Source: an uncultured archaeon (GTDB lineage Archaea > Asgardarchaeota > Thorarchaeia > Thorarchaeales > Thorarchaeaceae). From it: a stretch of DNA of 56,048 nucleotides. A program made the translations under genes and the position numbers. This document shows, one piece after another, positions 770 through 33,537 of the stretch (the first letter of the stretch is position 1; each line of letters begins with the position of its first letter). The notes under the pieces were generated by a model. That model saw only the letters and a program-made list of their open reading frames with translations. It was not told the origin of the DNA and ran no database searches. The stretch lies in the NCBI GenBank assembly GCA_964590575.1, contig CAZPWM010000007.1:1-56048 (forward strand), read 5' to 3'.

Positions 770-893
770 TAGAACACACTCTGTAGAAACAAAGACTGAC
801 TGTGACTCTTCCAGATATATCCATCGACGAACGGACAAGCCAGGAAACCTGCTACAAATAATTTAAAACCGACTTTGAGAGAACCCTATCGGG

Positions 894-1787
894 ATGGTCG
901 TGGAAGGAGATACCCCTTTTCCGAAATTTGAGAGGTGGCTTGAAAAAGAGTATCCGTCAGTGTACAAGGAAGAGATATACCATCGTTCTGAATGGCCAAT
1001 AGGGATTCTCTTTACTGCTTTTGGTTTCTTTCCATGGCTTCTCTCTAATTTTACTTCGGGTTCAATTCAAGTCATTGGATTGGGAGTTACTCTTTTAGGA
1101 ATTATAATTCTAATCATAGGATTTATTCGATATCGTTTTCAACTAGAGCGATACAGCTACCACGGGCTAACCCGAAATGCAATTACTGCTGCAATCATGT
1201 CTATCGATTCGCAGATAGTCAAACCCGATGAGATAGAATCACTAGCGCCACATCATGGAAAAACAACCATTACGAGCTATGATAGAGGAATGAAACGGAA
1301 AGAATTGATTAAACTCGTAAAGAGCACAGCTGGTCTGATTGAGTGGCCATCTGACTTTGTTGATGAGATCAAAGAGGATTTGGAACAAATGAAAAAGAGG
1401 TTTCGTCCATATTCGATCATCTTTCTAGTGATTTTATTCGTTCCATTATCAGTAATTTACTATCTTTATGCATCAGGAGGTTTGATGTTGTCATTGATAC
1501 TAGTCGTTCCCTTGATATCTTTCACACTCCAAGGCACCTACGATTATCTTCGATATGTAATTGACAACATGCACATATTAAAGGATAAATGGGCTCAAGA
1601 AATTCTTGCATCTGATTCAGTTCAATTAGAAGAAACAATGCTCGAGATATTCAATCGATTGCAATCAGAGTTTCAATACCCTCTTCGATTTTACCTTGGT
1701 CGAGAATATCCCCTCTTGAAATACACTGGGCGAACCAAGACCACCGTCACTCTGGCTCGATTGAAAGAGGCAGTCCTCTATCCATGA
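894..1787 (+). CDS. Hypothetical membrane protein (about 4 TM helices)
   Basis: 297-aa ORF with two hydrophobic helix pairs; no family motif recognised. Confidence 0.75.
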   Translation: MVVEGDTPFPKFERWLEKEYPSVYKEEIYHRSEWPIGILFTAFGFFPWLLSNFTSGSIQVIGLGVTLLGIIILIIGFIRYRFQLERYSYHGLTRNAITAAIMSIDSQIVKPDEIESLAPHHGKTTITSYDRGMKRKELIKLVKSTAGLIEWPSDFVDEIKEDLEQMKKRFRPYSIIFLVILFVPLSVIYYLYASGGLMLSLILVVPLISFTLQGTYDYLRYVIDNMHILKDKWAQEILASDSVQLEETMLEIFNRLQSEFQYPLRFYLGREYPLLKYTGRTKTTVTLARLKEAVLYP

Positions 1788-1821
1788 AGTACTTCTCCAT
1801 GAGTCGTAAAAGAGAAAACAG

Positions 1822-1840
1822 CTGGAGCTACAAGCTCCAG
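1822..1840 (-). terminator. Hairpin terminator after porB
   Basis: CTGGAGCT-ACA-AGCTCCAG perfect 8-bp stem, followed on the minus strand by CTGTTTTCTCTTTT; lies between convergent genes. Confidence 0.7.
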
Positions 1841-1852
1841 ACTGAATTTTGC

Positions 1853-2812
1853 CTAGTCCACCCCACAGCGTTTCTTCAAGAGCTCCCAGTCATGAGTTAC
1901 CTGTTCTTGGATTCTCTTTCTGAAGTCTTCCCACTCTGGCTTGAATAGATGCTTGAACTGACCCTGAGTTTTGAAATACTCATCAACAGGTTTCAGACCT
2001 GCTTCTGCAGCTCTCTTGCTAGGTCCTGACATGATCCACTCCTCGCCGTCGATGACCTCATAGAGTGGGTGAAGACCGGTTTCTACAGCAAGCTTGGACA
2101 GTGAGATACTATCTCCAGTAGGAGAACGCCAACCTCTCGGACAGGGTGAGAATGCATGTATGAATGCAGGTCCTACAACATCCAATGCCTTTCGGAACTT
2201 TGTGATGAAGTCACGGTAGTTGGATGCTTCTGCTGTGGCAACGTAGGGAATTTTATGAGCGGCAACAATCTCTGCAAGTGGTTTCTTACGCTCGAGCTTG
2301 CCTGGGATTGCACTACCACCCCACGATGTTGTAGTTTCCTGGCCTTGGAATGTGGCTCCAGACCTCTGAATTCCTGTGTTCTGGTACGCACCATTGTCAT
2401 AACACATGTAGACTAGGTCATGTCCTCGTTCTAGTGCGCCACTGATTGCACCGAACCCGATGTCGAATGAAGAACCATCCCCTCCCAAGGCAATCACATC
2501 AACATGCTCATGCTTATACCGTCCCTTTGCTCGCATTGCGTTGATGGCTTCTATCGCTCCTGATGCAACAGCTGCTGCGTTCTCGAAAGCCACATGGATC
2601 CACGGGATTTTCCATGCCGTGTACGGATAGATGGTTGTGGCAACTTCGAGACAGCCTGTGTTGTTACAAACAATAGTAGGTCCTCTAAGTGCCATTCCCA
2701 TGAGCTTTATCAAGGGTGGGGCTCCGCATCCTGCACACATCCTGTGTCCAGAGCTCAGAATCGGCTCACACTTGAGCATGTCTTTAATTGAAACTGCTGG
2801 TTTGTCACTCAT
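1853..2812 (-). CDS. porB: Pyruvate/2-ketoisovalerate:ferredoxin oxidoreductase beta subunit (TPP-binding)
   Basis: GHRMCAGC, TGCLEV, FENAAA, GGDG...DNGAYQNTG and PCPRGW motifs. Confidence 0.93.
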   Translation of the reverse strand: MSDKPAVSIKDMLKCEPILSSGHRMCAGCGAPPLIKLMGMALRGPTIVCNNTGCLEVATTIYPYTAWKIPWIHVAFENAAAVASGAIEAINAMRAKGRYKHEHVDVIALGGDGSSFDIGFGAISGALERGHDLVYMCYDNGAYQNTGIQRSGATFQGQETTTSWGGSAIPGKLERKKPLAEIVAAHKIPYVATAEASNYRDFITKFRKALDVVGPAFIHAFSPCPRGWRSPTGDSISLSKLAVETGLHPLYEVIDGEEWIMSGPSKRAAEAGLKPVDEYFKTQGQFKHLFKPEWEDFRKRIQEQVTHDWELLKKRCGVD

Positions 2813-4014
2813 TACTTACGCACCCCCAAGGTTTCGTACATTGGAGCCTTACCCTTCTTGAGGTACTCCTTTGTCTTCTCGATTCCTTCAACAAACGTTA
2901 TTGGCGGAACGTCACGACCCCCTAGTCCAACAACAAAGTCCACTATCATGGGTCTTTCCTGTGCTTCATAGAGTGCAGTTCTGACCTCTAGAGCCAACGG
3001 ATGTGCGGCAGCTCCAAATGACATTGCCTTCTCAAAGACTGCGACAGCCTTTGCTTTGCCAAGTGCTTTTGCAATCTCCTTCGTTGGGAATGGTCTGAAC
3101 ATCTTGAGCCTGATGACACCAACCTTGTCGCCTTTCTCTCGCATGGCTTCAGCGACCACCTTGGCTGTACCTCCCATGGAGCTCATTGCGATTATGATGA
3201 TGTCCGCATCATCGGTCTTGTAGGTCTCGAAGAGACCGTACTTTCGACCAGTGAGCTTTGAGAACTCAGCCTCGACTTCATTGTAGGCTTTGGGAACACC
3301 CATGATGGCCTCGTCTTGTTGCTCCTTGAACTCAAAGTAGTAGTCAGTGAGCGCTAGCGGTCCCATGGTTATTGGATTGTCAGGATCAAGGGAGATGAAC
3401 GGTTCTCTCACTCCGAGGAACTTAGTAACAACATCGTCGGGGAGCATCTCTACTCGTTCAACGTTGTGGCTTACGATGAAACCGTCAATACCAACCATTA
3501 CGGGTAGCAACACATCATGTCGCTCGGCGAGCTTGAAAGCCATGATTGTAGTGTCATAAGCCTCTTGACAGCTCTGGCAATAGAGCTGAATGAATCCACT
3601 GTCCCTCATTCCCATCCCGTCACTATGATCATTGTGGATGTTGATCGGACCTGATAGAGCACGGTTTGCCACAGTGAAGACGATTGGCATTCTCATTGAT
3701 GCTGCACAGTAGAGAATCTCCCACATGAGAGCAAGTCCAGCTGAAGCGGACGCTGTTGCAACTCTACCACCTACAGCTGAGGCTCCTACACATGCGCTCA
3801 TGGCTGAGTGTTCAGACTCTACTGGAATAACATGTGCTTTGACCTCGCCATCTGCAGCGAAGCGCTGGTAGTCCTCCACAATAATGGTCTGTGGAGTGAT
3901 CGGGTATGCGGCTAGAACATCCAAATCTGCCTGCTTGAGAGCATGAGCAATGGCTGCATCACCAGTCAGACCTTCAACAGTAATCTTGTCTTTTGGTATA
4001 CTCATTTTTCTCAC
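2812..4014 (-). CDS. porA: Pyruvate/2-ketoisovalerate:ferredoxin oxidoreductase alpha subunit
   Basis: AYPITPQT, ESEHSA, NRALSGPINIHNDHSD and GLGGRD motifs. Confidence 0.93.
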   Translation of the reverse strand: MRKMSIPKDKITVEGLTGDAAIAHALKQADLDVLAAYPITPQTIIVEDYQRFAADGEVKAHVIPVESEHSAMSACVGASAVGGRVATASASAGLALMWEILYCAASMRMPIVFTVANRALSGPINIHNDHSDGMGMRDSGFIQLYCQSCQEAYDTTIMAFKLAERHDVLLPVMVGIDGFIVSHNVERVEMLPDDVVTKFLGVREPFISLDPDNPITMGPLALTDYYFEFKEQQDEAIMGVPKAYNEVEAEFSKLTGRKYGLFETYKTDDADIIIIAMSSMGGTAKVVAEAMREKGDKVGVIRLKMFRPFPTKEIAKALGKAKAVAVFEKAMSFGAAAHPLALEVRTALYEAQERPMIVDFVVGLGGRDVPPITFVEGIEKTKEYLKKGKAPMYETLGVRK

Positions 4015-4307
4015 TCCTTTTCCATATGAATCGAGTCAGTGGGGCATTCCTTAGCGCATATCCCACATCCTTTGCAGTAATCGTAGTTGTACGCGTAGGC
4101 GTACTTTCCATCCTTCTCAGTCAAGATGACTGCCATGTCAGGACAGAATATCCAACAACGGCCACAGGTTCCGTTTTTTATCCAGAGGCACTTCTCATCG
4201 CTGTGGATTGGCCTCTCAGCACGCCAACCTCCAGTCTTATACTTCTTAGAATTGCCTGGCTCGATAATATTGCCGGCAATTGGAATCTCATTGTACTTCT
4301 CGCTCAT
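4011..4307 (-). CDS. porD: 2-oxoacid:ferredoxin oxidoreductase delta subunit (2x[4Fe-4S])
   Basis: KTGGWR, C...CGRCWIFCP and YDYCKGCGICAKECP motifs. Confidence 0.92.
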   Translation of the reverse strand: MSEKYNEIPIAGNIIEPGNSKKYKTGGWRAERPIHSDEKCLWIKNGTCGRCWIFCPDMAVILTEKDGKYAYAYNYDYCKGCGICAKECPTDSIHMEKE

Positions 4308-4891
4308 CCGACCTTTGCCTCCTTAACAGCTCTATCAATTGCAACCTTGTTCAAGTCTCCAACCTTGCCCGGGTATCGTTCCAGGACTTCACCAATCACA
4401 GTTTCAACCGCTACTACACCTGTGAACTTGACTGCTGCAGCCATGGTTGGCATGTTATAGAATGGTCGACCCATGACCTCCATCGCTATGGTGCTGGCAT
4501 CAACTGTGACCACTTTACCACCTTTGAAACCAAACCTGTCTCTGATGGTCTGCGGTTCCTTGCTTGTGTTGACTACCAGAATACCTTCTTTCTTTAAACC
4601 CTCAGTTACGTCTACGACATCCAATAATGTTGGGTCAATACAGACCACAACATCTGGGTCATATACCTGTGCGTAGACCTGAATGGGTTGTTTACTAATT
4701 CTCAAGAATGCCCTCACAGGTGCGCCAGTTCTTTCCGGACCAAACTCTGGAAAAGCCTGGATATAGTTACCTTCAGAGAGGGCGGCTTTGCCTAGCATCT
4801 GGTTACTGGTGACCACACCCTGGCCGCCACGACCATGCCAGCGAAACTCAGTAATTCCTTTCGCAAAATCCATCGCCATTGTCAATTTCAC
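4304..4891 (-). CDS. porC: 2-oxoacid:ferredoxin oxidoreductase gamma subunit
   Basis: EFRWHGRGGQG and FPEFGPERTGAPV motifs. Confidence 0.92.
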   Translation of the reverse strand: MKLTMAMDFAKGITEFRWHGRGGQGVVTSNQMLGKAALSEGNYIQAFPEFGPERTGAPVRAFLRISKQPIQVYAQVYDPDVVVCIDPTLLDVVDVTEGLKKEGILVVNTSKEPQTIRDRFGFKGGKVVTVDASTIAMEVMGRPFYNMPTMAAAVKFTGVVAVETVIGEVLERYPGKVGDLNKVAIDRAVKEAKVG

Positions 4892-5214
4892 CTACATTGG
4901 GAGAAGCTTCAGGAGTGGCCTGCTGGGGGCTGCTTATGTATTTAATGGCATGGACTATTGAAATGTAATAAAAATAGAGCTTGAAGAGTATGAATTCCGA
5001 AAATGGGCGATATATGAGGAAATTGCTGGGGCGCATGCATGGAAAACATGAAACGACACCTCTCCAGCCTAAATTATGCACGAGGAGAACCTTTCCGTAT
5101 CTTCTTTCTATCCGGTCGACCTCGTATCGAAACGGAGATACACCATATACTATTGGGAGATTATCAATTAACTATGCATTCAGGCAGGATGCATTCGATA
5201 AATAACGGACTTTA

Positions 5215-6429
5215 CTAAGATAGTCTCTTCACAAGGAGAGTGATAATCACAAAAATTGCCACAGTGATTCCTGAAGCTATCATGACGAGTTCGGTTCCAA
5301 TGCCTCCCAAGATGAAAGATATAACTGACACAAAGATTCCATCTGTTGCTGTATTCCCAGCTCCATCATACAATATGATTGAGATCGCATAAGTGCCTAA
5401 TTCAAGATGATCTAGATTAAATGTTATGTTGCTCCCGCTCCAAAATGCTGCGATTGTTATGGCTTCATTCTCTTTAATCTCATATGATTTTGGAAACTGG
5501 TCGTAGACATGCCATGTCAATGTGTTACCTGACGTTTCGACATCAATTGCAACATCCAAAAGCGGGAGGATACCCGGAGCCAAAGTGTCTTCGAGGAGCT
5601 GAGGAAACCTATCAAATGAACTACCAGTCCCTAGGATTTGATGATTTTCAGACCCATTATAATCTGACCAAAGATTGCCAATATTGAATCCGTCATCAAA
5701 TGAATTGTCCTCTCCATTATCAATCGCATTTCCTCCATCACTTCCAGATACATTGTTCCATCCAATAGAATTTCCAAAGACAGAGTTGTTATGAGAGTAG
5801 GATGTTATTTCAATACCATATTCCCTATTCGAGTAGATTAAGTTGTTGAGCATATCACAATGGTCTGATCCTTCGAATAGAATACCTTTATTATTATTGT
5901 ATACTCTGTTCTCCAGGACTGTGCAATTAGAAGCATAACGAAGCACAATCCCGTTCCAGCATCCAAATAATGAATTATCTACGACGAAACAATCAACTAC
6001 GCTTAATAGTTGAATACCGCTTACACCAGCAATGATCTCACACTGTTCCACTCGACCATTCTCTACATCTTGAAGTAATATCGCTGGTCTGGAAGCACCT
6101 GCTTCCAATTTACAGTTTGAAATCACAAAATTTGCAGTCGTGTCTTGAATCACAATACAACTTTCAGCATCCGTGATTTGGATATTTTCGAATGTATAAG
6201 GGTCAGAAGGAGTTCCTACACCTGAAGCCCCCTGCAGGACAAAGTCTACATTACTTGTGATGAGTATTGGTTCGCGTGTCTGGTATTGTGCAATAGTATT
6301 TTCTCGTATTGTACTCACATTGACGGACTTCAAACCTGAAGGAACTGAAGCGATTAACATACTGCTTGCAGTTGATAGTATAAGCAAGGATACTAGCATT
6401 GATGTGATACTGCTATGTTTCATCCTCAA
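5215..6429 (-). CDS. Surface protein: NosD/right-handed beta-helix + Ig-like domain + C-terminal TM anchor
   Basis: Signal-like N-terminus, GxGTxxDPY, repeated GIxL...N beta-helix coils, GNLWSDY, hydrophobic C-terminus ending KRLS. Confidence 0.8.
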   Translation of the reverse strand: MRMKHSSITSMLVSLLILSTASSMLIASVPSGLKSVNVSTIRENTIAQYQTREPILITSNVDFVLQGASGVGTPSDPYTFENIQITDAESCIVIQDTTANFVISNCKLEAGASRPAILLQDVENGRVEQCEIIAGVSGIQLLSVVDCFVVDNSLFGCWNGIVLRYASNCTVLENRVYNNNKGILFEGSDHCDMLNNLIYSNREYGIEITSYSHNNSVFGNSIGWNNVSGSDGGNAIDNGEDNSFDDGFNIGNLWSDYNGSENHQILGTGSSFDRFPQLLEDTLAPGILPLLDVAIDVETSGNTLTWHVYDQFPKSYEIKENEAITIAAFWSGSNITFNLDHLELGTYAISIILYDGAGNTATDGIFVSVISFILGGIGTELVMIASGITVAIFVIITLLVKRLS

Positions 6430-6492
6430 GTAGAAAGCCTCCTGAATCCTGTCATTTTCTTATACAACCACCTCTTGAAGGTTACCAATTGA

Positions 6493-7092
6493 CTAATCGA
6501 CTGGTTCTGGAGTTTCACCCTCTGCAAAATCTATCGCCATCTCGTTAAGATCCAGGAAGAGCTGACAATACTCACTATTCGATATCGAAAGTAACACTGA
6601 GTCATCTACGCGACTAATTTTATGAAATCGAATCGCTCGTTCCAACGCTCTCGGAAAAAGACCGTATAGTAGTATCATAACAAGGAGTACAGTTGTACCT
6701 ACGAATCCCACCAATGGTTGGAGAAAAGGTCTAGAGTAAACTAATGCCGTATTGATCTGAAGTAAGAAATACAATATCGGATAAAACAGAAGGAAGAATC
6801 CCAGAGCTGCAATTAGTTTTGTCTTCAATGAACGAACCTTTTTACTCCCGTGCTTCATGCAAGTAGGAATTGCAAAAGTAGTCGCTCCTTTTGCTGCACT
6901 CAAAGCAACTGATGTTGCATCTTGCGGTTTGGTCCAAGAGCTGGAGGCATAATCATCATATACTTTCTCTATGATTGTGACAAACACTAAATCTTCTGGC
7001 TCTTCCAAACATACTGGACAGACCTTGGGAAACTGAATCTTGGACATCTTCACCTTGAATTTCGATGGCCCCTTTTGTTCTCCAGTCATCAT
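6493..7092 (-). CDS. Membrane protein with N-terminal Zn-finger-like motif
   Basis: FPKVCPVC...CMKH followed by two TM helices. Confidence 0.7.
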   Translation of the reverse strand: MMTGEQKGPSKFKVKMSKIQFPKVCPVCLEEPEDLVFVTIIEKVYDDYASSSWTKPQDATSVALSAAKGATTFAIPTCMKHGSKKVRSLKTKLIAALGFFLLFYPILYFLLQINTALVYSRPFLQPLVGFVGTTVLLVMILLYGLFPRALERAIRFHKISRVDDSVLLSISNSEYCQLFLDLNEMAIDFAEGETPEPVD

Positions 7093-7111
7093 GTCTGTAC
7101 TCCATGAGCGG

Positions 7112-7486
7112 TTATTTGGGTGGCATTACAATGATTTGAACACTAGTTATAGGCCGGTTTGTCTTGGGATCAGCTGCATCAAATGTGTCAAAGGTCATCA
7201 GGTATGTGAATTTACTCTCCATTAGTTTCAGTTCGTGGGCAACTCGAACAGCGAGACCGATTCCTTTGAAACCAAAACCGCGTATTGCGACCATCCTCTC
7301 ATCGTCTTTTACAAGCCCTCGGAGAGTATGTGCAATTTTAGGAATATTGACCTTTCCCGCATTATGTGATATCTCAAGAAGAACATAGTCACTGGTTGGA
7401 TAAACTGAGATGTCCTCATCAATGGTTATAGCAATCATAGCTTCGCCAATCTTAAGCTGTTCAGGTATGCGGTCTCGGAGTGACAT
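7112..7486 (-). CDS. Alba-like DNA/RNA-binding protein with N-terminal extension
   Basis: VAIRGFGFKGIGLAVRVA...RPITSVQIIV resembles the Alba pattern (IKARGRAISRAVDVA...VSxIEI). Likely start MSLRD at 7486; the ORF track starts at 7516. Confidence 0.65.
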   Translation of the reverse strand: MSLRDRIPEQLKIGEAMIAITIDEDISVYPTSDYVLLEISHNAGKVNIPKIAHTLRGLVKDDERMVAIRGFGFKGIGLAVRVAHELKLMESKFTYLMTFDTFDAADPKTNRPITSVQIIVMPPK

Positions 7487-7590
7487 ATTTCCTGAATGTG
7501 AAATTGGACTAATCAACTTGATGGCTTAGGAATCCCCAATCTCAACCCTCATATGCGTTTTAGATGTTAATACCTTGAGGTTCGCTGAAA

Positions 7591-29492: not shown

Positions 29493-29843
29493 TCACTTTG
29501 TCCTAGGCGCCCAAGCATCTAGACAGTCTTGAACCGTGGCGATGTGTGATGCTGCTGGACCTCCGCCCATGACAATCGCTACTGAGCAGGCTTCCATGAT
29601 CTCCTCTCTTGTTGCTCCAAGCGTAAGAGCTTGTTTTGTGTGGTAAACCATGCAATCCTCACATGGCGAGAGAATCGAAGCCACGATACAGATTATCTCT
29701 TTGAACTTGGCTGATAGAGCACCATCTTTGTGCACTGTTTTCTGAAGGTCAGTGAATGCATTTCTTGCATCAGGAATATCTCGGTTAAGTGCACCAAAAT
29801 GCTTCATGAAGCTTTTCAACGTCTTTTCAACATCATCAGTCAT
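29493..29843 (-). CDS. AhpD/carboxymuconolactone decarboxylase family protein with CxxC
   Basis: GALSAKFKE...PCEDCMVYH...GATREEI; likely start MTDD at 29843, 17 nt after the lplA stop. Confidence 0.85.
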   Translation of the reverse strand: MTDDVEKTLKSFMKHFGALNRDIPDARNAFTDLQKTVHKDGALSAKFKEIICIVASILSPCEDCMVYHTKQALTLGATREEIMEACSVAIVMGGGPAASHIATVQDCLDAWAPRTK

Positions 29844-29860
29844 TGGACCATTCCTCAGAT

Positions 29861-30655
29861 TCACTGGGCTGCAGTACCCAGATTCCACTCGGACTGGGAA
29901 TAGCGGCTCTGATATAAAGCCTGTGCAGTGTCTTTCTCTTCCTCTGATAGAGACTCTTTATGGACCGCCTGTCCAGAGATAATCTTGATACTTTGTGCTA
30001 TTGCATGCTTGATTGCTTCATTTGAGGGACATTTTTTGACTTGGTCTGCAATATTCGTTACATTGTCACGTTTGCTTTCCATGCAACGGACTCTAGTCCT
30101 GTCGCGGAGAAAAACTGTTTGTCTTTCTGGTGGTGATAAGCTTTGACGAAGCATTGAGAGATCGGATTTAATCAGCAATGTTCCATGAAGAAAAGCAACA
30201 CCTCTCTTGAGCCAACCTGCGGTCCCTGTAATCTTCAGGTCATTAATCCTGATACAGGAAAGAACAGGATCATACATTGAAGGAACATTAAGTGATTGCA
30301 AAGCAGTTGATACATTACCAATGAACAATTCGTAAATTTCCTTCAAAGTCTGTGGAACATACTTATCACTACGATCTGCGCAGATTGAAAAATTTAGGTT
30401 TCCAGGATCATGATACACTGCCCCGCCTCCAGTAAACCGTCGAGCTATTGCAATTTGCATGTTTTTACAATAAGACAGATTCACCTCTTTGTGTACACAT
30501 TGGAATCTGCCAATAACCACTGCTCTATCGGAACGCCAGAAACGAAGGGTGCTTATCTTGTCCTCTTGATTTGATGTGCATCTAGCAATGGCTTCATCAA
30601 CTGCAAGATTCTGATAGATATCCATTCTATCCTCCTCAATAAGCCGCCAAGTCAT
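29861..30655 (-). CDS. lplA: Lipoate-protein ligase A (catalytic domain only)
   Basis: NLAVDE, VVIGRFQ, RRFTGGGAVYHDPGNL, KITG, HGTLL and WN motifs. Confidence 0.88.
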   Translation of the reverse strand: MTWRLIEEDRMDIYQNLAVDEAIARCTSNQEDKISTLRFWRSDRAVVIGRFQCVHKEVNLSYCKNMQIAIARRFTGGGAVYHDPGNLNFSICADRSDKYVPQTLKEIYELFIGNVSTALQSLNVPSMYDPVLSCIRINDLKITGTAGWLKRGVAFLHGTLLIKSDLSMLRQSLSPPERQTVFLRDRTRVRCMESKRDNVTNIADQVKKCPSNEAIKHAIAQSIKIISGQAVHKESLSEEEKDTAQALYQSRYSQSEWNLGTAAQ

Positions 30656-30740
30656 TCGAAGTTCACTCGATTATTCTATTTCATCTGCTTCTTACGTATT
30701 CTCCTGATTAGGTTGTTGTCTTGTCAAATTAAGTAGGTTA

Positions 30741-30858
30741 GCCGATGGCCAAAGTAAGTTGCTCACCATCGGCAGGAGGCCTCAGAGCAACGATTGAGGC
30801 AGAGCAGATGTCGTATTCGAGGCTGACACGAACACTCGTGTCGACATTTGGTCTGCTC
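30741..30858 (-). ncRNA. Candidate structured RNA (multi-hairpin with loop-loop pseudoknot) in the lplA leader
   Basis: Stems GCCGATGG/CCATCGGC, GCCTCA/TGAGGC, GACACGA/TCGTGTC, ATGTC/GACAT and GAGCAGA/TCTGCTC; complementary loops GTTGCTC and GAGCAAC; TTATAT on the minus strand at about 30865-30870. Strand is inferred. Confidence 0.55.
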
Positions 30859-30897
30859 CTTAGAATATAAGGTCCCCCAGATATTTAGTGTCGAAAC

Positions 30898-31221
30898 TTA
30901 CGACATAATCTGGCCACATTCGTGACAGGTCAAAGCGCCTGGTCTTAGTTGCGAACCACAGTAGGGACAGCTTCTTCTTTCCGGTTGTAATTGTGGCGTC
31001 TGGTGAGCCCCCAGCACAAATCTTCCTGAGTTGTTAATATTCCGTAGACCAGTTTGGTCTACATAGAACTCTGTATATCCACAATCAGCGCATGTGAAAG
31101 ATTCCAGTGTTGCAGTTGAAAATCCTGGAAGGTCAACCCTTACCCAATGTTCACCTGCAATCCTATGAGGTCCAGCTATTCTGCTACCTCCGCATTTGGG
31201 ACACGTTTGTGTATGAATCAT
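30898..31221 (-). CDS. Double zinc-ribbon protein
   Basis: CPKCG...CADCGYTEFY and CPYCG...CHECG; likely start MIHTQ at 31221. Confidence 0.78.
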   Translation of the reverse strand: MIHTQTCPKCGGSRIAGPHRIAGEHWVRVDLPGFSTATLESFTCADCGYTEFYVDQTGLRNINNSGRFVLGAHQTPQLQPERRSCPYCGSQLRPGALTCHECGQIMS

Positions 31222-31317
31222 CTCACCATCATGTGAGATTTTGTTTAAAGACTGATAATGTTTGGCATCTCCGATGATACATGGAAGGGACTCTAGAATC
31301 ACGATGAACAAGAAGTT

Positions 31318-32562
31318 CTAAATTTTCATCATAAATGGGTTTTCAAGGGTTTTCTTCAACGCTGCTAGGAATTGCCCCGCTGGAGCACCATCAAGTACTC
31401 TATGGTCAACTGCACAACTGGCCATCATCATTGATCGTATAGCAATCGAATCATCAATGACAACCGGTTTCTTCTTGATTTGCCCAAGAGCGAGGATTGC
31501 AGTTTCAGGGGGATTGATGACTGGAATGAATAAGTCAACATTGAATGGACCGAGATTTGACACAGTGAATGTGCTTCCTGTGAGCTCTTCTGGTTTTAGT
31601 TCGTTCTCCTTAGCCCTCTTTCCGAAATCTTTAGTTTCTATGGCAATCTCGGTAATAGACTTCTTGTTTGCATCTCTGACAGTTGGGACAATGAGACCAT
31701 CATCTGTTGCCATCGCTACACCGATATTCACCTCATCGAATATCACCAAATCGTTACCAACAAGTGTAGCGTTGAACTTTGGAAATCTGTCGAGCGTGTC
31801 AGCTACTGCTTTCACGATAATGTCGTTGAAGGAAATCCTGATACCATGTTTCTTCTCAACACGTTCATTGATTTCCTTACGCAACTCCACGACCTCTGAC
31901 ATATCAATCTCAGTAATCATGGTGATATGTGGGTTCTGTGAGCTCTGAGTCATCCTTCGTGCAATGGTTCTCCTTAGATGAGGCATAGGAGCAACCTGTC
32001 TGATCTTTCGCTCATCTGAAACCGTTGCCTGCGGAACAGTCTGTGCAGTGAGAATATCCTTCTCCACAATCCTACCACCAGGACCAGTACCGACAAGGAG
32101 GGCTAGATCGATATCCATCTCTTTCGCTTTCTTCTTAGCTCGAGGAGATGCCTTGATCTTTCCACCCGGTAGCCTAGTTTCGACAGGAGGTGTTGTTACA
32201 CGTGTCACTGTCCTTTTCTCCGGAGTGGTTGCAACAGGAGTAGGGGTCGATACAACAGGAGTGGCTGCTGCACCTTTGTTCAACTTCTTCGGCATGACAT
32301 CAGGAACTTTCTCTCCCTTCTTCCCAATGTACGCAATAGGCTCACTGATGGGGATTTCATCGTCTACATCGCAGAGTATCTTGAGTAAAATTCCATCTGC
32401 AGGTGATTCCAACTCGAACTCGTTCTTCTCACCGAAGATTTCGACGATTAGGTCACCCTGCTTTACAGTGTCACCCTCTTTCTTCAACCACTTGAGTATC
32501 ACGCCATATTCCATGGCTACACTCATGCGCTGCATGATCATAGTTGTGACCAATGACTTCAC
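31318..32562 (-). CDS. pdhC: 2-oxoacid/acetoin dehydrogenase E2, dihydrolipoamide acyltransferase
   Basis: Lipoyl domain (EIFGEK), E3-binding ASPRA...GTGPGGRI, catalytic DHRVLDG. Substrate not determined. Confidence 0.9.
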   Translation of the reverse strand: MKSLVTTMIMQRMSVAMEYGVILKWLKKEGDTVKQGDLIVEIFGEKNEFELESPADGILLKILCDVDDEIPISEPIAYIGKKGEKVPDVMPKKLNKGAAATPVVSTPTPVATTPEKRTVTRVTTPPVETRLPGGKIKASPRAKKKAKEMDIDLALLVGTGPGGRIVEKDILTAQTVPQATVSDERKIRQVAPMPHLRRTIARRMTQSSQNPHITMITEIDMSEVVELRKEINERVEKKHGIRISFNDIIVKAVADTLDRFPKFNATLVGNDLVIFDEVNIGVAMATDDGLIVPTVRDANKKSITEIAIETKDFGKRAKENELKPEELTGSTFTVSNLGPFNVDLFIPVINPPETAILALGQIKKKPVVIDDSIAIRSMMMASCAVDHRVLDGAPAGQFLAALKKTLENPFMMKI

Positions 32563-33537
32563 CTACACGATATCACGGATAGCTTTGGCTATTCGCTTGT
32601 TATCCGGAATGAAATATTGTTCAAGTGGTGGACTGAATGGGACTGGTGTGTCCGGAGCATTAACCCTCTTTATGGGGGCATCTAACCAGTCGAAAGCCTC
32701 TTCTTGAACGATTGCTGCAATCTCTGCAGTTGTCGCTCCAGTCTTGGTTTCTTCAGTCACGAGCACTAGTCTCCCAGTCTTCTTGACAGACTCAATCAGT
32801 GTCTTTGTGTCTAGTGGCGCAAGTGTCCGTGGATCGATGACCTCCACACTGATGCCATCTTTCTCTAATTCATCTGCCACTTCTAGGGCTTTGTGAAGCA
32901 TGAAGAATGTTCCCCAGACTGTGACATCTGCTCCCTCTCTTCGTACCTTTGCCTGACCGAATGGGATTGTGTAGTCCTCATCAGGAACTTCTTCCTTCTT
33001 ATCGTAGACTAGTTTGTGCTCAAAGAACATCACTGGGTCAGGGTCTCTAATTGCTGTCTTGATGAGCCCTTTGACATCATAAGCGAATGCAGGAACCGCA
33101 ATCTTGAGACCCGGCGTGTGCATGAACCATGACTCCAAGCTTTGAGAGTGATGGGATGCTATGTTCTTACCTCCACCAAACACACTTCGAAGTACAAGTG
33201 GAACTGAGGTCTGTCCCCCAAACATGTAGTGCATCTTAGCTGCTTGATTACAGACCTGGTCCATTGCGAGAGTGATAAGATCTCCAAACATTATCTCTGC
33301 TACAGGAATCAGTCCAGTAATCGCAGCACCAACAGCTGCTCCAGCTATGGTATTTTCAGAGATTGGAGTGTCCCTAACTCTGGCTTCTCCAAATTCTTCA
33401 GCCAATCCCTTTGTGACCTTGAAGGCTCCACCCCAGTTGAGACCCACGTCTTCACCCATTATGAACACACGTTCATCGCGAAGCATCTCCTCCCGAAGAC
33501 CTGCTTTGAGAGCGTCTCTATATGTTATCTCTGTCAT
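32563..33537 (-). CDS. pdhB: 2-oxoacid/acetoin dehydrogenase E1 beta
   Basis: GEDVG, DTPISE, AEIMF, HSQS and FFEHK motifs. Confidence 0.92.
   Translation of the reverse strand: MTEITYRDALKAGLREEMLRDERVFIMGEDVGLNWGGAFKVTKGLAEEFGEARVRDTPISENTIAGAAVGAAITGLIPVAEIMFGDLITLAMDQVCNQAAKMHYMFGGQTSVPLVLRSVFGGGKNIASHHSQSLESWFMHTPGLKIAVPAFAYDVKGLIKTAIRDPDPVMFFEHKLVYDKKEEVPDEDYTIPFGQAKVRREGADVTVWGTFFMLHKALEVADELEKDGISVEVIDPRTLAPLDTKTLIESVKKTGRLVLVTEETKTGATTAEIAAIVQEEAFDWLDAPIKRVNAPDTPVPFSPPLEQYFIPDNKRIAKAIRDIV

Follow-up and report, generated by a model that had tools for sequence, protein, structure and literature searches.

A minus-strand small RNA gene of one Thorarchaeota family, usually located upstream of lplA

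The window considered here is a stretch of 56,048 nucleotides (nt) on contig CAZPWM010000007.1 (assembly GCA_964590575.1) of an uncultured archaeon of the Thorarchaeaceae, and the element in question is a group of hairpins between positions 30741 and 30842, upstream of the lipoate-protein ligase gene lplA. The hairpins belong to an undescribed small RNA gene of one Thorarchaeota family, which is read from the minus strand, and the RNA is an archaeal small non-coding RNA family not described before. The preferred reading, in which about even confidence is placed, is an independently transcribed small non-coding RNA that most likely pairs with another RNA (a trans-acting riboregulator). That the RNA has a gene of its own, whether base-pairing or protein-binding, is judged likely, and between these two modes base pairing is slightly favoured. 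The first-pass annotation of the window had drawn the hairpins in plus-strand coordinates as a kissing-loop RNA, either a riboswitch or other cis-regulator of lipoate salvage or an independent non-coding RNA. The latter option fits best, with a promoter of its own and copies without lplA. All strings of that drawing are present in the letters of the window: the arms of hairpin A (30741-48/30766-73) and of hairpin B (30779-84/30795-800), the complementary 7-mers in their loops (30758-64 and 30785-91), GACACGA/TCGTGTC of a "domain C", a second GAGGC (30819-23), and a minus-strand TTATAT. In the labels used below, g stands for genus, G for genome and L for locus.

Conservation, strand and fold of the RNA

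Two covariance models were used, R1 built from an alignment of the window's genus and R2 built from the matches of R1. R1 finds the RNA in 61 of 86 genomes of the family and class and R2 in 70 of 87, in 11 of 17 genera and essentially as one copy per genome. As had been proposed, the element is a structured and conserved RNA, and it belongs to an Asgard archaeon. Of 151 sampled genomes of the phylum, 27 are from the family and 19 of these match; the 124 genomes from 26 other families yield 3 matches. The latter three (17-21 bits) are counted as false and by eye appear to lie within coding sequence, antisense to a stretch for a G-A-D-V-like peptide. Genus g9 retains a degenerate trace only (14 bits).

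The 146-nt stretch folds better than its dinucleotide shuffles on both strands (plus, z -3.5, 1 of 200 shuffles as good; minus, z -3.05, 0 of 200 as good). Searched against Rfam 15 (4227 models), the full window had no match at gathering thresholds, and the segment 30600-30950 had none even at E <= 10; ARAGORN reported no tRNA or transfer-messenger RNA genes in the window. The RNA is single-copy in the window's genome (one sequence match, motif patterns unique). It is thus, as the annotation had supposed, neither a known Rfam family nor a dispersed repeat with several copies per genome, such as the end of a miniature inverted-repeat transposable element or insertion sequence (IS).

The figures on strand and covariation refer to 70 aligned matches from 68 genomes, in an alignment fitted to the covariance model. 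Read on the minus strand, the helices hold 95 G·U and 8 A·C cells, and 98.4% of 1495 cells are paired in the sense direction versus 92.6% in the antisense direction. In hairpin A the minus strand has G·U where the plus strand would have A·C, and some genomes are compensated to G-C. The strings of the plus-strand drawing were right, but the functional strand is the minus strand. Eighteen of the 23 pairs are changed on both sides and none of 500 shuffles equals the observed values, figures that overstate independence because the alignment is model-fitted and the genomes are related. When the partners are slid by 1-3 columns, pairing collapses to 19-54%. An alignment of 25 genus-level sequences made independently of the model (MAFFT/RNAalifold) gave four helices, the same as those of the model, with compensatory changes in 7 of 23 pairs. 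Covariation in the 70 homologues supports P1, as the inner "domain C" hairpin is called here, and likewise hairpins A and B. In the RNAalifold consensus the hairpins stand in series around an unpaired conserved stretch, with no enclosing helix and no multi-helix junction. The parts of the RNA, in their order on the minus strand, are as follows.

30863..30875, minus strand: promoter GGACCTTATATTC, resembling a B recognition element and TATA box (BRE/TATA-like), with TATA core TTATATT at 30864-30870; a conserved heptamer
30825..30842, minus strand: P1, the 5' hairpin GACACG-loop-CGUGUC; 5/5 pairs changed on both sides (AU/GU/GC, GC/AU, others)
30801..30824, minus strand: unpaired platform AGCCUCGAAUACGACAUCUGCUCU, family consensus GCCUCG-AAAU-A-CGACAUCUGCUC, from column counts of the 70 sequences
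30779..30800, minus strand: hairpin B, GCCUCA-loop-UGAGGC, with loop 7-mer GUUGCUC; 6/6 pairs changed on both sides
30741..30773, minus strand: hairpin A, GCCGAUGG-loop-CCAUCGGC, with loop 7-mer GAGCAAC; 7/9 pairs changed on both sides, 99.7% of cells paired
30720..30740, minus strand: predicted 3' tail UAACCUACUUAAUUUGACAAG, pyrimidine/U-rich, a possible termination region; the window has only UUU
30703..30719, minus strand: ACAACAACCUAAUCAGG, a motif conserved in the genus, probably a separate TATA-like promoter of lplA

In 64 of 70 copies a (C/T)TTAWAT heptamer stops 22-24 nt short of the point where pairing in P1 begins; if spacing is disregarded, 68 of 70 have one. Most of the 16 tRNA genes found in the same genome (~12 of 16 by eye) are preceded, at approximately 30-40 nt, by an element of the same CTTAAAT/TTATA type. 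The archaeal TATA box is usually centred near -26/-27, and with this spacing the transcription start is predicted at ~30843 +/- 3, right at P1. The claim that the minus-strand TATA element drives transcription is upheld by its conservation at a fixed spacing. The 21-codon open reading frame (ORF) whose ATG had been placed near this start is rejected, its ATG being present in only 4 of 14 rows of the genus's first subgroup and in no row of the second.

The platform contains the nearly invariant unpaired stretch of the family core, GCCUCGAAAUACGACAUCUGCUC. Five of its columns are identical in 70 of 70 sequences, and CCUCG, GAC and CAUCUGCUC are kept in at least 62 of 70; the platform remains invariant while LplA identity drops to 50-56%. 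The one helix predicted inside it (UCG/CGA) was dropped, since 0 of its 3 pairs covary and one pair shows 9 unpaired cells, and no conserved intramolecular partner for the platform is found in the 70-sequence alignment. Hairpin A is nearly universal, although the g33 copies L088 and L089 carry another hairpin (GGGAG..CUCCC) in its 3' position; hairpin B is gapped out in 15 of 70 copies, and its loop sequence varies between genera. A C/U-rich, anti-Shine-Dalgarno-like motif (CCUCC, CUCUCCUCC or AACCUCCCUCU) occurs in an exposed loop of most genera outside the window's genus, namely in the P1 loop (g3, g5), loop B (g4, g7) or loop A (g6, g10, g36); in the window's genus CCUCCU forms the linker joining hairpins B and A. 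A weak second match in one genome (L127, G082:C15:19688-19817; 21.8 bits) contains GUGUCUCGCCAGGAAAAACACCAUCUGCU, which is like the P1 3' arm plus platform, and could be a diverged paralogue or a chance occurrence.

Loop complementarity and alternative pairings

The complementary 7-mers GUUGCUC (loop B) and GAGCAAC (loop A) are invariant in 25 of 25 sequences of the window's genus, with adjacent loop positions varying. When the loops of any one of these sequences are shuffled 200 times, 7 complementary nt arise once at most. Both 7-mers are present in 28 of 70 rows, all from this genus. Among the 42 rows from outside the genus none shows the 7-mer complementarity; the longest is 2-4 nt, or hairpin B is absent. 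The kissing loops of the annotation are thus beyond chance within the genus but absent outside it. Collecting homologues confirmed the helices by covariation; the 7-mers, in contrast, never vary and offer no covariation to prove loop-loop pairing. Given their invariance and the loop shuffles, the pairing is plausible and under selection in the window's genus. In g3, loop B repeats the platform's CAUCUGCUC.

The annotation had also noted that the second GAGGC would allow a mutually exclusive pairing with hairpin B. On the RNA strand this string is a second GCCUC and part of the invariant platform, giving two copies of GCCUC per one GAGGC; the window's genus also has two UGCUC per one GAGCA. In some genera the 3' arm of hairpin B could take the platform GCCUC as an alternative partner, but in g7 the arms of hairpin B are changed and the platform is not, so that a switch based on GAGGC pairing is not a conserved feature. 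The outer stems drawn for "domain C" (ATGTC/GACAT and GAGCAGA/TCTGCTC) fare worse. Their 5' arm in RNA sense (GGAGCAGA...AUGUC) falls in the interval that separates the TATA element from P1, ahead of the predicted start, and is conserved neither in the second subgroup of the genus nor in other genera; their 3' arm is the invariant platform. The outer stems are therefore probably not part of the RNA. The attractive riboswitch reading rests on these lineage-limited features, the kissing loops and the alternative GAGGC pairing.

Genomic context

Every gene flanking the RNA is on the minus strand (Pfam search).

32563-33537, minus strand: E1-beta of a 2-oxoacid dehydrogenase (Pfam)
31318-32562, minus strand: E2 of the 2-oxoacid dehydrogenase (Pfam)
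30898..31311, minus strand: 137-residue double zinc-ribbon protein, the upstream neighbour of the RNA (Pfam)
29861..30655, minus strand: lplA, lipoate-protein ligase catalytic domain (PF21948, 2.4e-43)
29493-29888, minus strand: CMD/AhpD-like gene, after lplA (PF02627, 2.7e-20)

BLASTN finds the element in genomes of the same genus with the same gene order around it, and the nearest named relatives of the window's LplA are Candidatus Thorarchaeota metagenome-assembled genomes (73-80% identity), so that the annotation had guessed correctly in taking the source for an Asgard archaeon. The zinc-ribbon gene is immediately upstream of the RNA in most loci and missing there in several RNA-bearing loci. 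Its protein, conserved between E2 and the RNA, occurs as two tandem copies in three congeners (L023, L026 and L027; 36-37% identical to the counterpart) and has generic zinc-ribbon matches in Pfam, plus a weak match to TNB (2.1e-4, 21.8 bits, below the cut-off of 26.3). Genome G020 has two near-identical E2-RNA-lplA-CMD loci on the short contigs C152 and C119 (L003, L094), which may reflect strain heterogeneity in the assembly and not a true duplication.

The RNA lies 56 nt past the stop codon of the zinc-ribbon gene on the same strand, as would be expected of a 3' untranslated region (UTR) or terminator element of the upstream dehydrogenase operon. A metatranscriptome contig with 1 difference in 218 nt, which also agrees with such an element, covers 30856-31073. 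It takes in the zinc-ribbon gene's 3' end, and its limit at 30856 falls within the RNA gene's TATA region. However, the conserved TATA element separates the RNA from the upstream gene, and copies are found without E2 or zinc-ribbon gene upstream and in genomes without an E2 match, which renders this explanation extremely improbable.

The position relative to lplA can be assessed for 67 of the 70 matches, one being a displaced remnant and two lying at contig ends. In 57 of the 70 copies lplA follows 41-141 nt downstream on the same strand, in four (g5, L091) it follows at 287-701 nt, with an ORF in between at the g5 locus L102, and in six genomes (four of g10, G068 and G012) lplA is absent from a downstream sequence of at least 1.5 kb, the RNA being retained there with its promoter and motif. 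The RNA does not, as had been asked of it, always precede lplA. In G068 (L089) it lies between two genes of the opposite strand, and in G012 (L057) and g10 (L076) the next gene converges on it. The four g10 genomes (83-93% complete) have only LplA paralogues of 23-30% identity and no E2 match with the query used, and their RNA copies keep the TATA element, P1, platform and hairpin A. The convergent gene of L076 (2135-2401, minus strand) is an 88-residue ORF with a gelsolin repeat (Pfam 5.7e-7); gelsolin-like proteins occur in Asgard archaea. Conversely, genera g2 and g32 have lplA-CMD with no match to the RNA upstream even with filters off. In rearranged loci the RNA stays beside E2 in some lineages and beside lplA in others.

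These positions bear on the explanation by a cis-acting leader. In it the RNA would form the 5' part of lplA-CMD transcripts that start from the TATA element and, as a riboswitch, an attenuator or a protein-dependent leader, would control termination or translation of the ligase operon according to a ligand or protein. The same-strand lplA close downstream is what such a leader would show, and is to that extent a point against a free RNA. The RNA-lplA pair is also kept in g6, g8 and part of g36 even where neither E2 nor the zinc-ribbon gene is present within 1.5 kb upstream; a run of at least four T within 40 nt past hairpin A, ahead of lplA, is found in only 24 of 70 copies; and the doubled GCCUC and UGCUC strings permit alternative pairings. 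A leader is nevertheless hard to reconcile with the six genomes lacking lplA downstream, four of which show no orthologous LplA or E2 match, with the presence of lplA-CMD but no RNA in g2 and g32, and with the distances in g5 and L091 and the intervening ORF at the g5 locus L102. The fold has no closing helix or junction, 15 of 70 copies do without hairpin B, and only one genus shows the loop-loop pairing. Furthermore, the spacer between RNA and lplA is variable in length and sequence and carries TATA-like elements: ACAACARNTAATCAG in the window's genus, one (TTAAT) approximately 28 nt before the ATG in its second subgroup, CAAGGTTTAATGTG in g3, and comparable TTTAAT/TTAAG elements between RNA and lplA in g3 and g4. 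These elements are probably lplA's own promoter. A cis-acting leader is considered rather unlikely on this evidence.

The features of a riboswitch in particular are largely absent. Of the 67 assessable copies, four have lplA at 287-701 nt and six have none within at least 1.5 kb, and these do not show the constant 5' UTR position; the hairpins are serial, without a junction or a general pseudoknot, the 7-mers occurring in 28 of 70 rows; and lplA-CMD is the only recurrent gene downstream, the RNA never preceding another gene of the lipoate pathway. Purine and lysine riboswitches have loop-loop (kissing) tertiary contacts. They resemble the RNA of the window in their neighbouring hairpins with complementary loops and in their usual position upstream of a metabolic gene, whereas the present RNA has no closing helix or three-way junction, bears the 7-mers in one genus, can dispense with one hairpin, occurs without a downstream gene and has no Rfam match at E <= 10. 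A riboswitch for lplA is unlikely, and the proposed kissing-loop aptamer that would regulate lipoate salvage in cis finds no support. In a more specific version, the platform together with P1 and hairpin A would be the binding site for a metabolite of the lipoate pathway or for a protein dependent on lipoylation state, and would thereby set read-through from the strong promoter into lplA-CMD, the copies without lplA being remnants after its loss. This version is regarded as quite unlikely. If true, it would be the first riboregulator of lipoate salvage and a new archaeal class of riboswitch or attenuator.

In two congeners, G014 (L092, G014:C21:42000-50500, 893-7548) and G016 (L016 1-1630, L093 2924-3009), the RNA gene is split by an island. 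The remnant before the island consists of the TATA element, P1 and GCCTCGAATACGAC, the break falling right after ...GAAUACGAC(A). The island measures ~6.4 kb in G014. Its left part is not the same in the two genomes, whereas on the right it ends with a TnpB-like gene (447 residues, Pfam TNB 5.9e-15) that stops 12-14 nt before ACGACATCTGCTCCAAGCC. After the island, both genomes have an intact RNA beside lplA, with a TATA element of its own and a compensated P1 (G-C to A-U). The retention of an intact, promoter-bearing copy with compensated P1 supports a selected, promoter-dependent RNA gene. Since the island is inserted exactly within the motif, the invariant motif looks like a site-specific insertion point, and insertion there was possibly guided by TnpB.

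The same loci suggest a derivation of the RNA from a mobile element, as a TnpB omega RNA, attachment site or IS end. The TnpB-like gene adjoining the motif, the island within it and the weak TNB match of the window's zinc-ribbon protein would fit. The likeness to the TnpB omega RNAs of IS200/IS605 elements (PMC10691335, PMC12558985) lies in a TnpB-like gene that abuts the motif in the two congeners and in a structured RNA that adjoins a zinc-ribbon gene. In contrast to omega RNAs, which lie at the 3' end of tnpB and consist of a scaffold with a variable 3' guide, the RNA is single-copy, found once per genome across the family, syntenic and provided with its own promoter, and its conserved stretch is internal; the window has no TnpB, the upstream gene being the 137-residue zinc-ribbon gene. 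A relation of the zinc-ribbon protein to TnpB as a relic was rejected, no relation being detectable (BLASTP against the TnpB-like protein, E 0.078 over 21 residues). A scan of viral contigs returned 24 exact pattern matches, about the chance level by rough estimate, and a best model score of 17.8 bits. A mobile-element origin is held to be very improbable.

Proposed role of the RNA

In the preferred reading, a tRNA-gene-like TATA promoter 23 nt ahead of P1 would drive a minus-strand RNA from ~30843 to ~30725, roughly 100-120 nt in length. The transcript would begin with P1 and a 23-nt unpaired stretch, continue through hairpin B where a copy has one and through hairpin A in nearly all copies, and close with a tail rich in pyrimidines and U. 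The hairpins may stabilize the RNA and present the unpaired stretch, which would be the functional surface, with another RNA as its most likely pairing partner. The complementary loops of B and A probably serve, in the window's genus, to dock the two 3' hairpins onto each other or to mask the second UGCUC in loop B. Transcription may also continue past the RNA into lplA in most genomes, the RNA then being a leader, and a promoter of lplA itself seems to lie in the spacer ahead of its start codon. The combination of promoter, 5' hairpin, invariant unpaired stretch and 3' hairpins, together with presence without the usual neighbour, points to a free small RNA with the platform as its recognition surface. 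Two features of a stand-alone small RNA are present: its own promoter keeps a constant spacing, and some copies have no same-strand gene downstream.

Several observations weigh against this reading, besides the nearness of lplA and the relatedness of the genomes behind the pair counts. In the window hairpin A is followed by only UUU, and most copies lack a tract of four or more T, so that read-through into lplA is likely in many genomes. In assembled contigs of metatranscriptome run X1 (8% of sampled words), matches cover 29561-29711, 30856-31073 and 30872-31028 and none covers the RNA, the contig form being uninformative on its expression. The reverse complement of the 12-nt core, with at most one mismatch, has 28 sites in the window's genome, none of which stands out. 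Against a reversed control the counts in four genomes were 28 versus 13, 23 versus 17, 20 versus 24 and 19 versus 16, which is no excess, and no such sites lie in 16S or 23S genes. A duplex scan of 16,418 candidate start regions yielded no target that stands out.

In RNAduplex the 27-nt platform reached -28.0 at best against 23S (shuffled motifs -24.8 +/- 2.5) and -20.4 against 16S (shuffled motifs -23.9 +/- 2.1). The string GAGCAGATGTCA at 32922-32933 (minus strand), inside the coding sequence of E1-beta (codons G-A-D-V), is an 11-of-12 complement of the core motif; it was rejected as a target because such sites are at chance level genome-wide and g10 has the RNA without a dehydrogenase E2 match. 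Outside the window, the 16S rRNA match at G000:C73:13812-16104 spans 2293 nt versus a model of 1478 positions, which suggests a large insertion, such as an intron or expansion segment.

The invariance of the 23-nt stretch across genera without a detectable complementary target would suit a protein-binding site on an independent stable RNA, acting as a component of a ribonucleoprotein or as a decoy; the protein could be of the zinc-ribbon or Lsm type or some other RNA-binding protein. The whole case for an independent gene holds for this alternative as well, the promoter is of the stable-RNA type, the CCUCC-like loop recurs in most genera in different hairpins, and the zinc-ribbon gene directly precedes the RNA in most loci. 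On the other hand, several loci with the RNA have no such gene upstream of it, and neither a K-turn nor any other known protein-binding motif can be recognized. Protein binding is judged unlikely to be the right answer.

Among known systems, the base-pairing small RNA of the preferred reading is close to the archaeal trans-acting small RNAs (sRNAs), for example sRNA162 of Methanosarcina mazei (PMC3510493; review PMC4152357). The likeness consists in an intergenic position, a length of ~100 nt, a separate promoter, stable hairpins on either side of a conserved unpaired region, and a neighbouring gene that could be affected in cis. The Thorarchaeaceae RNA differs from them in being unrelated in sequence, outside any Rfam family, restricted to a family and known here from sequence alone, and in its unusually long and invariant unpaired region (~23 nt). 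The dual-function 5'-UTR sRNA Rli51 of Listeria (PMC11394854) is alike in lying directly upstream of a gene, with leader/attenuator and free sRNA both possible; it is bacterial and unrelated in sequence, and both activities are only hypothetical for the Thorarchaeota RNA. In literature searches at the level of titles and abstracts, no Thorarchaeota small RNA, no lipoate riboswitch and no lipoate-linked RNA element came to light.

Very little is known about the non-coding RNAs of Asgard archaea, and the present RNA provides a clean case: each genome carries it once, its promoter keeps a fixed distance, three of its helices covary and its 23-nt platform is invariant. At ~110 nt it can be synthesized for structure probing and partner fishing and used for target prediction, in a lineage that has no cultured members.

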